The translations under genes were made by a program, and so were the position numbers. Source: a virus (lineage: Duplodnaviria; Heunggongvirae; Uroviricota; Caudoviricetes). From it: a DNA stretch of 44,330 nucleotides. The notes under the pieces were generated by a model, which ran no database searches, had not been told where the DNA came from, and saw only the letters and a list, made by a program, of their open reading frames with translations. Positions 2,494-4,847 of this stretch are shown here, one piece after another; position 1 is the stretch's first letter; each line of letters starts with the position of its first letter. The stretch lies in the IMG/VR virus record IMGVR_UViG_2541047714_000011; one strand, written 5' to 3'.

Positions 2494-2793
2494 CTACGAT
2501 GCAAGAATCCATACCAATAAGCATCCGATAATTGGGAAAGAAAAATCCAACAAACTTCCCACATCCCACACGCGTGGATCAAAACCTCCCCACCACGGCA
2601 TGTTGACACGTTTCCCTTTCCCAAACTTTTCTATCCAGCGATATTCTGCCTGGGTGTGTTCACGCGCAATGAAGAACGTACAACCGGCTATCGCACCGTA
2701 AGCCCAGTTTCCGGTAAAAATACCAACCAGTACCTGAGCCGCAAAAGCGCAAAGCGAGTGAAGAAATGGAGTGACATCAATGCTCTTAATCAT
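2494..2793 (-). CDS. Hypothetical small inner-membrane protein (99 aa)
   Basis: Track ORF; two or three predicted TM segments; ATG overlaps the tailspike stop (ATGA); sits in the usual lysogenic-conversion position. Confidence 0.5.
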
Positions 2794-4847
2794 GAAACTT
2801 CCCCATTGGTTGAAAATATGGCTCCTCCAACTCCAAGTGTATTTCGTGTTGTGCTCAACCTAAGAGGGCTGGAGTCAGAATTAGAATATCCTGTAGCAGA
2901 AATAAAAGATCCTCCACTAATAGTCAACTGCGGAACATCGGCTATATCTGAATAAGTTCTGTCAGCAACAGTATTATTTATAGCCACATGTGATCCAAAA
3001 AAACTTCTTATTGTTTGGTTTTTAACTTTACTTCCTTCAATGGTTATCCTACTACCACAGTCAGCAATAAATCCTGAATCTGCATCCAGCGTTGCATTCA
3101 TAAAAGAAGCTTCAGATCTCTCTACATCAATCCATCTAATATCTTTTGTGGGATTTGCACCAAATACATGACAAATATTAGAGTTAAACCTTACACCATC
3201 TTGGAGGTGCATTAATTTTTTTATATCTGTACCCCATAGCCTTGGAAAATTAACAGATGCTCCTGCATGGCAATCAAATCCCAACTCAGCCCCTGAGATA
3301 TCTACAGCCTTTCCTGAAATAACAGCACCAGTGTCTGCATTAACGGCTGTTCCACAATTGCGCATATCATTACCAGCAATATCAACACAACTCGCACCAT
3401 CAATACGCACACCAAGTGCACATCCATAAAAACCTTTTTCAATATTTGGTTCAAGGACTTTACCACTTGTTTCTGCATCACTTTCTTCAACGTCATGTCG
3501 TCTTGCATCAACATATGCTGTATGAATGCAGGTTAATCCACGATATGAGCAATGTATAGTTTTATGGTCGCGTATATTAACATTTGAACCATCTCTTACA
3601 TTCCATCCTATATAACAATAGCTTGCACTTGACCCCTGAAAATCTGCTTTAACATTATAAATACAATTAACTGACGCAACCGTACTCTCTGTGCACCGTT
3701 CAAACTTGCTTACAGGCATTGATGCCTTGACATTATTTACCAGTTGCAGGGAAGAGTATCTGCTATAAGAAAAATCACATACGTAATACCCTTCTGGCAT
3801 ATATGCAGCAACACTTTCCTCATCAGGAGCACATCCGGTATGATATGCACTAATTTTTGCACCAAAGCTACCATGAATTCCAACGTAGAACTTTCGAGCA
3901 CCTGAATACGGATAGAAATTAAGTTCAGCTTTTTGAGTTACAATAAATGCACAAACATCGCTATCATCTCTATTTTCTTCAATCTGAATAGCAAATACAG
4001 GACTTTTTGCTGCATCGCAAATGTAAAATAAATATTTGTATTCGTAATACGTCCTAACAGTTTTAGTAAACAAACTGGTATCAGAGAAAACCACTGAGTC
4101 TTCTGATATTATTTTAATCCATGATAAGTCACATCCTGCTGAAATTTCTATTTGCTCATTGAGCACAAAACCGGAAAGAATTTTAATTATGCAAAAGTCA
4201 ATGCCATTTTTCCATAGTGGACGCAGTGCAACAGCCGAGTTTAGAGCATCACTAATAGATTTAAAATTACCATATTCCCCAACTGTTATTGTGAATGCAT
4301 ACCTGGAATTAAATACTGCGGCACTCTCTCCAGAGTTAATAGCTGCAGATATCATGTCATAATTTGATATAAAATCATTTGGCGTGATTATTTCTGCGTT
4401 TTTATTGTGCTGTGTTCTAAGTTTTGAATTTACATGAACACTTTTAACTGCAATACGGGAGTCGTCAACAAGTATTTCATTACCCTCTGTTGCTAACTCT
4501 TGTCTTAACTGATCCGGGTCATACTTCAGCACATTCGGAAAATAGAACTGCTGTGCACCATACGCATCATAAACAGCCATAGAATGGCCTTGCTCAGTTA
4601 CGAATTTGGCAATCTGTCCGTTATATACAGGATAACCAGCAGCGTTAATGATGATTGGTTGCGAAACAGGAACGTGAGAGCCGTCTTCGTTCTCTACATA
4701 AACCTGAATCTGGTTTTCAGGATTTACCGGGTCAGTGTCAATTTTACCGATATAAATTTTGCCATTGGCTACGGCTTTAAAAGAACGCGCCATAGTGAAG
4801 AGTTGCGAAGGCATACTCACTACAACATTGGCTGTAATGTCTGTCAT
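2790..4847 (-). CDS. Tailspike protein; P22 gp9-type N-terminal head-binding domain with a divergent receptor-binding body
   Basis: 685 aa; N-terminus [11 protein letters not shown]...[20 protein letters not shown]...VLKYDPDQ matches the P22 tailspike N-terminal domain as recalled; remainder not recognised; SD GGAG upstream. Confidence 0.85.

Follow-up and report, generated by a model that had tools for sequence, protein, structure and literature searches.

A prophage tailspike followed closely by a small membrane-protein gene raises two questions: which surface structure of the host the spike recognizes, and what the small gene contributes. We addressed both for positions 2,494 to 4,847 of the 44,330-nucleotide (nt) viral record IMGVR_UViG_2541047714_000011, a whole stretch referred to below as the window. 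Here a tailspike gene of 685 amino acids (aa) ends in the start codon of a 99-aa gene, next to the integrase gene (int) of a P22-like prophage. A preliminary description, made from the sequence alone, had taken the tailspike for a chimera with a swapped body, probably an Escherichia coli O-antigen depolymerase, and had implied that the 99-aa protein stands in for the gtrABC-type O-antigen conversion genes. On balance, we find the probable explanation to be a swapped body with a kps capsule as its receptor, followed by a separate 99-aa accessory gene for which a protective role is our guess.

Capsule or O-antigen as receptor

Three hosts of a 99%-identical tailspike, strains MS 198-1, CB7286, and PCP07083, differ in their O-antigen clusters. 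According to their PGAP annotation, MS 198-1 carries the O11 wzx/wzy genes, CB7286 a cluster of the O17/O44/O73/O77/O106 family, and PCP07083 an O7 cluster. The O11 wzy gene is found in 66 genomes, and MS 198-1 is the sole tailspike host among the 60 listed. As a separate observation, galF at the edge of the O11 cluster in MS 198-1 (locus L106, 34779-37110) is interrupted by IS4.

MS 198-1 also contains a capsule locus of the kps kind, in which the serotype-specific region codes for a galactosyltransferase-related protein, acyltransferases, and others, with kpsM and kpsT interleaved, as well as for a 1248-aa TagF-like protein of the CDP-glycerol glycerophosphotransferase family. By megablast, 49 of 5426 complete E. 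coli genomes have the TagF-like gene (40 with the full-length gene and 9 with a 74%-identical variant), and the tailspike body is present in 16, of which 7 are P22-like and 9 epsilon15-like occurrences. The TagF-like kps gene is carried by 15 of these 16 body-bearing genomes, with a hypergeometric probability of ~3e-31, a figure that overstates independence because of clonal relatedness and because one pair of records represents the same strain. That the hosts share one capsule type is thus supported statistically, at 15/16 versus 49/5426 uncorrected for clonal descent. The link recurs in two prophage types that are unrelated and use two integration sites, across gene variants of 100%, 98.9%, and 74% identity (two or three capsule-locus variants), and for hosts isolated from humans, chicken, pig, and seawater. 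In the variant locus of FORC_082, the galactosyltransferase-related/TagF-like pair is kept and the set of modifying genes is simpler; the retention of this pair suggests a shared backbone. Based on the differing O clusters and on the rare kps locus common to 15 of 16 hosts, a K antigen is a likelier receptor than an O-antigen, and the earlier assignment of the body as an O-antigen depolymerase is not upheld.

K52 is reported to occur mainly in clonal complex 69 (CC69) and to have a rearranged kpsM/kpsT (PMC13171598, PMC13171606), an arrangement also seen here, and one of the 49 TagF-like-positive genomes is labelled O15:H18, sequence type 69 (ST69). We therefore read the capsule as probably K52 or a close relative. 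K52 ranked first for estimated invasive potential in recent surveys of bloodstream infection (PMC13171598), and no phage depolymerase specific for E. coli K52 was found in the literature searched.

The nearest solved structure to the model of the body is the receptor-binding protein gp15 of Staphylococcus phage Andhra (PDB 8egr), whose presumed receptor is wall teichoic acid (PMC9710869). This likeness, which compares a predicted monomer model with a cryo-electron microscopy chain and does not extend to an established catalytic site, is only suggestive and would fit a polyol- or sugar-phosphate capsule. Andhra gp15 differs from the window tailspike in its N-terminal anchor and in its Gram-positive host.

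From these comparisons, a rare capsule of the kps (ABC-transporter-dependent) kind is the likeliest receptor. Its polymer would be a phosphate-containing, teichoic-acid-like K antigen synthesized by the TagF-like polymerase. The body would bind this K antigen and probably cleave or de-acylate the polymer, allowing the particle to reach the outer membrane, and it would be through the body that the phage gained access to capsulated hosts of the CC69 type.

The tailspike body as a cassette

The N-terminus of the tailspike had been described as the head-binding type of P22 gp9, and profile searches agree. Pfam Head_binding (PF09008) matches residues 1-113 over the full length of the profile (E=3.8e-66), and this domain is ~92% identical to Sf6 gp14N and ~72% identical to P22 gp9N. 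When all PDB sequences were searched, the matches to solved P22, Sf6, and HK620-type tailspikes ended at residue 116-160, with P22 gp9 alignable to residues 1-116 only and Sf6 gp14 to residues 1-160 only. The rest of the protein has no sequence similarity to P22 gp9 beyond the head-binding region, as the preliminary description had stated, and in sequence the body is not a homolog of the gp9 endorhamnosidase. Structure prediction of the body, proposed in the same description, yielded a parallel beta-helix: the AlphaFold2 model of the tailspike, built with 24 homologs, predicts a long parallel beta-helix from residue ~140 to the end with a predicted local distance difference test score (pLDDT) that is mostly >90, the architecture of pectin-lyase-fold polysaccharide depolymerases.

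Homologs of residues 120-685 span 36-99% identity and are fused to four virion-attachment domains, PF09008 (P22 head-binding), PF18668 (Tail_spike_N), PF12571 (P2-type fibre), and PF03906 (T7 fibre); some of them carry a C-terminal SGNH esterase. The 130-kb phage 92CQ carries DNA for the body that is 99% identical to that of the window, and epsilon15-like prophages and phage HEMP4 carry it at 98% identity, in each case with a different N-terminus; an Aeromonas prophage has a 68%-identical body. Judged from these sequences, the body is an exchangeable cassette in podo-, myo-, and siphoviruses. The chimera with a swapped module is borne out, as a P22/Sf6-type N-terminus is joined here to a body that is found on other N-termini elsewhere. 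Such a chimeric tailspike is itself ordinary, and modular tailspike exchange is textbook knowledge.

The borders of the exchange can be placed by comparison with seven P22-like prophages that have other bodies and are homologous to the window on either flank of the body. Homology on the left side extends to ~2781 and includes int and the 99-aa gene; on the right, it resumes at 4474-4510, in the head-binding region and ant. The variable cassette is therefore window ~2781-4490, between two conserved flanks, and the 99-aa gene is its conserved 3' flank. Crossovers also occur within the 99-aa gene, where the HEMP4-type match stops at 2535; the N-terminal third of the protein is common to the HEMP4 lineage, and the C-terminal part is common to other P22-like prophages. 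The mosaic nature of the gene (2535-2793 compared) indicates that recombination breakpoints lie inside it. We also observed that the first ~20, variable residues of the 99-aa protein travel with the tailspike body, and that its C-terminal third is that of the resident P22-like lineage.

These comparisons are consistent with a beta-helix body that was swapped in by homologous recombination between the head-binding coding region (5') and the 99-aa gene (3'). The head-binding domain (residues 1-113) would plug into a P22-type tail hub, and the same body circulates among epsilon15-like, HP1/P2-like, siphoviral, T7-like, and large myoviral genomes.

The 99-aa gene and its possible role

The overlap reported for the two genes is present as described: on the minus strand, the tailspike TGA (2790-2792) shares bases with the ATG of the 99-aa gene (2791-2793) within tcATGAtt. 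The 99-aa open reading frame (ORF) is, as had been proposed, a genuine membrane-protein gene with homologs, purifying selection, and predicted helices. It has 424 homologous clusters at 90% identity, an exhaustive hidden Markov model (HMM) search of the family returned 431 representatives at 50% identity, and the ratio of nonsynonymous to synonymous substitution rates (dN/dS) against homologs is 0.1-0.3. In the Aeromonas prophage with the 68%-identical body, stop and start overlap in the same way and both genes are collinear with those of the window; similar overlaps are found in Aeromonas loci L010 and L094 and in locus L104. From the 424 clusters, the dN/dS values, and the overlap in the Aeromonas prophage, we conclude that the 4-nt overlap is not that of a chance ORF. 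None of the 150 HMM matches listed contained an informative domain fusion, all of them being stand-alone proteins of 57-142 aa.

Most homologs start with ATG GAT ATA ACA at the position of residue 5, preceded by AAAGGAGG, and most have a strong Shine-Dalgarno site. In the lineage of the window, the codon for residue 5 is ATT and no in-frame start exists other than the ATG overlapping the tailspike stop, so that translation must begin four codons upstream. The 95-aa PGAP call in MS 198-1, where the sequence is the same as in the window, would begin at this ATT codon.

The 99-aa protein is a full-length member of PHROG 1443, with residues 5-98 aligned to positions 1-94 of the 97 in phrog_1443 (function unknown; E=9.1e-54), a family without annotation and without a Pfam or NCBIfam model. 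Searches of Pfam, NCBIfam, PADLOC, and PDB profiles gave nothing for the protein and nothing consistent for 39 distant relatives, and no report on FIG00639861 or phrog_1443 was found in the literature searched. The AlphaFold2 model (pLDDT 91.6) predicts helices at residues 8-27, 30-57, and 78-98. As most of the lysine and arginine residues are in the loop 44-77, this loop is probably cytoplasmic. Close relatives share an invariant core, RE(H)xQAEYRW...MPWWGGF...D. Among relatives of 27-51% identity, R44, E45, and W76 are invariant, and 90% or more of the sequences conserve H12, Q48, A49, E50, D83, and P87. This pattern of conservation suggests a binding or catalytic site at the membrane interface.

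The gene is present in 1918 of 5426 (35%) complete E. coli genomes, with a median of two copies and a maximum of seven, and is always annotated there as "hypothetical protein". All contexts examined have it immediately downstream of a receptor-binding gene, or of the small chaperone of one; the spacing typically falls between -8 and +27 nt, with overlaps of 1, 4, or 8 nt being frequent. At least 10 unrelated receptor-binding proteins precede it in lambda-, P2/HP1-, P1-, epsilon15-, and P22-like phages. Among these contexts are P22-like tailspikes, with seven or more different bodies; side fibres of the lambdoid type, some with an S74 chaperone domain at the end; phage 21 stf; a Comamonas GpJ-type fibre; Aeromonas HP1/P2-like fibres; and a Leclercia P1-like fibre cluster. 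In Halomonas phiHAP-1, the gene lies between a tail fibre assembly gene and the sheath gene, a slot that we take to be that of fun(Z) in P2, and in epsilon15-like prophages it takes the place of the epsilon15 conversion module and immediately precedes the holins. All full-length copies in the phage collection belong to temperate-type phages. The side fibre of phage 21 was considered as a relative of the tailspike body and proved unrelated, which indicates that the 99-aa gene is not tied to one body.

Conversely, the 99-aa gene is missing behind the same body in the 130-kb phage 92CQ and in three contigs, of which one is T7-like, one bears ocr, and one is 72 kb long. In 92CQ, the 99%-identical body is followed by an unrelated 81-aa membrane protein (locus L002, 3737-3982) of phrog_1322, category "moron", so that two different small membrane proteins trail the same spike. 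A further conserved hypothetical gene, of 92-95 aa, was seen between the long fibre and the short fibre/99-aa-type gene in lambdoid or P1-like elements of phage 21, BL21, EC332, and Leclercia.

In P22, the interval between tailspike and int holds gtrABC, and in Sf6 it holds oac. The absence of gtrABC-type genes from this interval in the window, noted earlier, was confirmed: only the 99-aa ORF and a 91-nt gap are found there, with no further ORF and no gtrABC or Oac conversion module, and neither the tailspike nor the 99-aa protein matches the GtrA, GtrB, or acyltransferase families of Pfam and NCBIfam. The implied role of the 99-aa protein as a gtrABC replacement did not hold up, given the at least 10 unrelated receptor-binding proteins that it follows and its lack of relationship to the epsilon15 polymerase inhibitor. 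By hhalign, the probability of a match between the 99-aa family and epsilon15 gp22 or gp23 is 0.2% or 0.5%, respectively. In phage vB_EcoP-611R6 (locus L005, 2408-4291), which is P22-like and located at argW, the order is tailspike, an OafA/YrhL-type O-acetylase, a tail-fibre remnant, the 99-aa gene, and int; here the 99-aa gene coexists with a classical conversion gene and does not replace one. A lead from Kapi1 was dropped, as the gene between its tailspike and int is an acyltransferase homolog with no lipopolysaccharide (LPS) phenotype.

We regard the 99-aa gene as an accessory gene in its own right, conserved in temperate phages and probably coupled to the tailspike in translation. Its product would be made together with the tailspike from the late transcript, given the lack of a promoter-like site nearby and the strong hairpin (2424-2457) that follows the gene. 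As the gene is found in temperate phages only, is indifferent to the type of receptor-binding protein, and occupies moron-like positions, envelope protection is our best guess for its function. We tentatively suggest, from position and distribution only, that the protein may protect the infected or lysogenic cell at the envelope, by superinfection exclusion or by blocking the receptor or entry. Searches for known exclusion or defence families returned only function-unknown families in PHROGs and nothing in PADLOC or by PDB profile.

Several observations weigh against this combined reading of a capsule receptor and a protective accessory gene. Strain EC332 (NZ_AP039429.1) is the only genome with a P22-like tailspike that lacks a TagF-like match; its capsule locus could have been lost or replaced, or it could be a counter-example. 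Clonal descent could inflate the capsule association, with many hosts possibly belonging to CC69; the assignment of the capsule to K52 plus a related type is a candidate one; and the invariant D/E/R/H positions of the body are not assignable to a catalytic mechanism. As for the 99-aa protein, it resembles no known exclusion, conversion, or lysis protein, its gene has no promoter-like site within ~1.3 kb upstream on its strand, and in one common lambdoid context a terminator-like hairpin lies immediately upstream of the gene. With no near promoter and with an upstream terminator hairpin in some contexts, the protein may be made only late in lytic growth, a timing that fits protection of the lysogen poorly and may favour a function in lytic growth. 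If the association between tailspike and capsule were a by-product of clonal inheritance, the true receptor would be the LPS core, enterobacterial common antigen, colanic acid, or a similar structure. Many of the capsule-positive genomes are probably CC69 relatives and one host is without the capsule gene, as this would predict, but the recurrence of the link in unrelated prophage types, at two sites, with three gene variants, and in hosts of varied origin and at least three O types makes such a by-product unlikely. We consider it distinctly improbable that the body is an O-antigen endoglycosidase like those of P22, Sf6, and HK620 and that the 99-aa protein is a minimal O-antigen conversion function in place of gtrABC or oac. 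The content of the tailspike-int interval in P22 and Sf6, the position of the 99-aa gene in the slot of the conversion module in an epsilon15-like prophage, and the beta-helix fold common to O-antigen tailspikes would all agree with it; the three O clusters among hosts of a 99%-identical tailspike would not. Nor would a 99-aa gene that lies behind lambda-type side fibres, P1-/P2-type fibres, and GpJ, none of them O-antigen-type targeting, that is found in 35% of E. coli genomes whatever their serotype, that accompanies an O-acetylase in 611R6, and whose product has no similarity to GtrA/B, acyltransferases, or epsilon15 gp22.

Two further roles were considered for the 99-aa protein itself. That it is a late lysis or membrane-timing factor of the holin or antiholin type, with no protective function, is suggested by its small size and three hydrophobic helices, by co-translation with a late gene, by its location in the epsilon15-like prophage, where it directly precedes the holin genes, and in the P1-like element, where LydB is its neighbour, and by a weak match to Phage_holin_8 (E=0.004) in 1 of the 39 distant relatives. 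Yet in prophages of the P22-like and lambdoid types the gene is remote from the lysis cassette; it adjoins int in the window and is not in any virulent phage of the collection; the protein itself has no holin match, its highly conserved polar loop is unlike holins, it lacks a charged C-terminal tail (the tails average 2-5 residues), and the hhalign comparison with epsilon15 gp23 was negative. We therefore doubt that it acts in lysis. Least likely, in our judgment, is a membrane-anchored chaperone or assembly platform for receptor-binding proteins. Such a function would explain the strict adjacency to receptor-binding genes and the frequent translational coupling, but structurally unrelated fibres and spikes precede the gene, some of them with their own S74 intramolecular chaperone, and the same body functions without the 99-aa protein in the T7-like, 72-kb, and 130-kb phages. 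P22 gp9 and Sf6 gp14 also fold without helpers.

The reading of a capsule receptor and a separate accessory gene changes the view of the locus in two respects. The likely receptor moves from an O-antigen to a rare, clinically relevant capsule, and a specific binder or depolymerase of K52, if confirmed, would be useful for typing and therapy. The overlapping ORF becomes part of a very common family that has no name, is coupled to receptor-binding genes, and marks the 3' border of cassette exchange. As the gene is in about one-third of complete E. coli genomes, often in several copies, its function would fill a gap in prophage annotation, and the gene may explain the precise exchange of host-range cassettes. 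Near-identical tailspike sequences are already public in JEP4, HZ41, and at least seven E. coli genomes. As a joint and more speculative proposal, which we put forward tentatively, the body would represent the first enzyme family for the teichoic-acid-like, K52-type capsule of invasive CC69, possibly one that cleaves phosphodiesters and not glycosidic bonds, and PHROG 1443 would represent a new and widespread inner-membrane class. Under this proposal, temperate phages of each of the three morphotypes may couple PHROG 1443 to their receptor-binding genes; the protein could, for instance, generally block the entry of phage DNA or a conserved step of envelope-glycan assembly, and its conserved DNA could also serve as the downstream homology arm for exchange of host-range cassettes.

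Setting of the locus and related systems

The closest known system is CUS-3, which has a K1-specific endosialidase tailspike. CUS-3 has a P22-like genome and matches the ant/head-binding end of the window at 94%; it likewise joins a P22-type N-terminal domain to a capsule-directed body with a kps K antigen as receptor, features of the body that are predicted for the window. It is presumably integrated at argW in K1 strains. The two differ in that the CUS-3 body is an endosialidase and the body here an unrelated beta-helix, and in that the CUS-3 receptor is polysialic acid and the polymer here is predicted to be a TagF-type, phosphate-containing one. The O-antigen endoglycosidases P22 gp9, Sf6 gp14, and HK620 gp9 share with the window tailspike PF09008 (72-92% identity), the neck, the right-handed parallel beta-helix, and the position of the gene after ant. 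For the 99-aa gene, the nearest parallels are cor of phi80 and N15, T5 llp, P2 fun(Z), HK97 gp15, epsilon15 gp21/gp22, and P22 gtrABC, which block receptors, DNA entry, or glycan assembly and are likewise linked to envelope functions beside a receptor-binding gene or in a tail operon. The 99-aa protein differs from all of these in having no sequence or profile similarity to them, in the independence of its gene from the type of receptor-binding protein, and in its three membrane helices and invariant RE(H)xQAEYRW loop.

Two P22-like phages, JEP4 (a Lederbergvirus by classification) and HZ41, share 97-99% identity with this region, and large ORFs run on through the whole window. As is typical of the P22-type tailspike family, the tailspike gene comes after ant and closes the late region of a P22-like genome. 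Based on the gene order from yfdC and argW and on the identity to JEP4 and HZ41, the start of the window is the int-proximal end of a P22-like prophage at argW. The features of this end are listed below.

Features of the int-proximal part of the window (coordinates in nt)
Feature	Position	Strand	Basis or remark
yfdC	1-933		Adjoins argW
tRNA-Arg(CCT) argW, prophage attachment site	1009-1083	+	ARAGORN; MS 198-1 annotation
IntS-type tyrosine integrase	1209..2402	+	Pfam Phage_integrase, Phage_int_M, Arm-DNA-bind_3; convergent with the 99-aa gene
14-bp perfect hairpin	2424..2457		In the 91-nt gap between the convergent 99-aa gene and int
Gene for 99-aa three-helix inner-membrane protein (predicted), PHROG 1443 family	2494..2793	-	
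ATGA, tailspike stop over 99-aa gene start, putative translational coupling	2790..2793	-	Read from sequence
Tailspike gene, 685 aa	2790..4847	-	
Tailspike residues ~120-685, neck and right-handed beta-helix receptor-binding/putative depolymerase body	2793..4490	-	Variable cassette
Tailspike residues 1-113, P22/Sf6-type head-binding domain	4509..4847	-	Conserved 5' flank of exchange cassette
Intrinsic-terminator-like hairpin and T-run, between ant and tailspike gene	4911..4930	-	Terminator scan
ant (antirepressor) homolog	4948-5892	-	
DNA-transfer protein gene	7860-9686		

In the near-identical locus of strain MS 198-1, the integrase is annotated as intS. The terminator-like hairpin downstream of ant corresponds in position to an annotated "terminator" in HK620 and epsilon34. 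The hairpin between the 99-aa gene and int lies in a region (2400-2500, minus strand) whose predicted RNA fold has an energy of -33.7 kcal/mol (z=-3.8 versus shuffles), and on the minus strand it has no U-tract; it is a possible bidirectional terminator or RNA-stability element, the terminator role being deduced from structure. A promoter scan gave no more sites than shuffled sequence and none near the 99-aa gene.

Two other parts of the prophage contain small features of note. The region 5889-7835, between ant and the gene for the DNA-transfer (ejection) protein, contains Arc/Mnt-like ORFs and four small ORFs that belong to the unknown-function PHROG families phrog_27312, 4231, 3556, and 2651. 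One of these four, a 145-aa ORF at 7398-7835, has an N-terminus that resembles a signal peptide, and the small ORFs of this region are possible further morons. Distant from the attachment site, tRNA-Thr(TGT) and tRNA-Asn(GTT) genes lie within the prophage at 24978-25133 on the minus strand.

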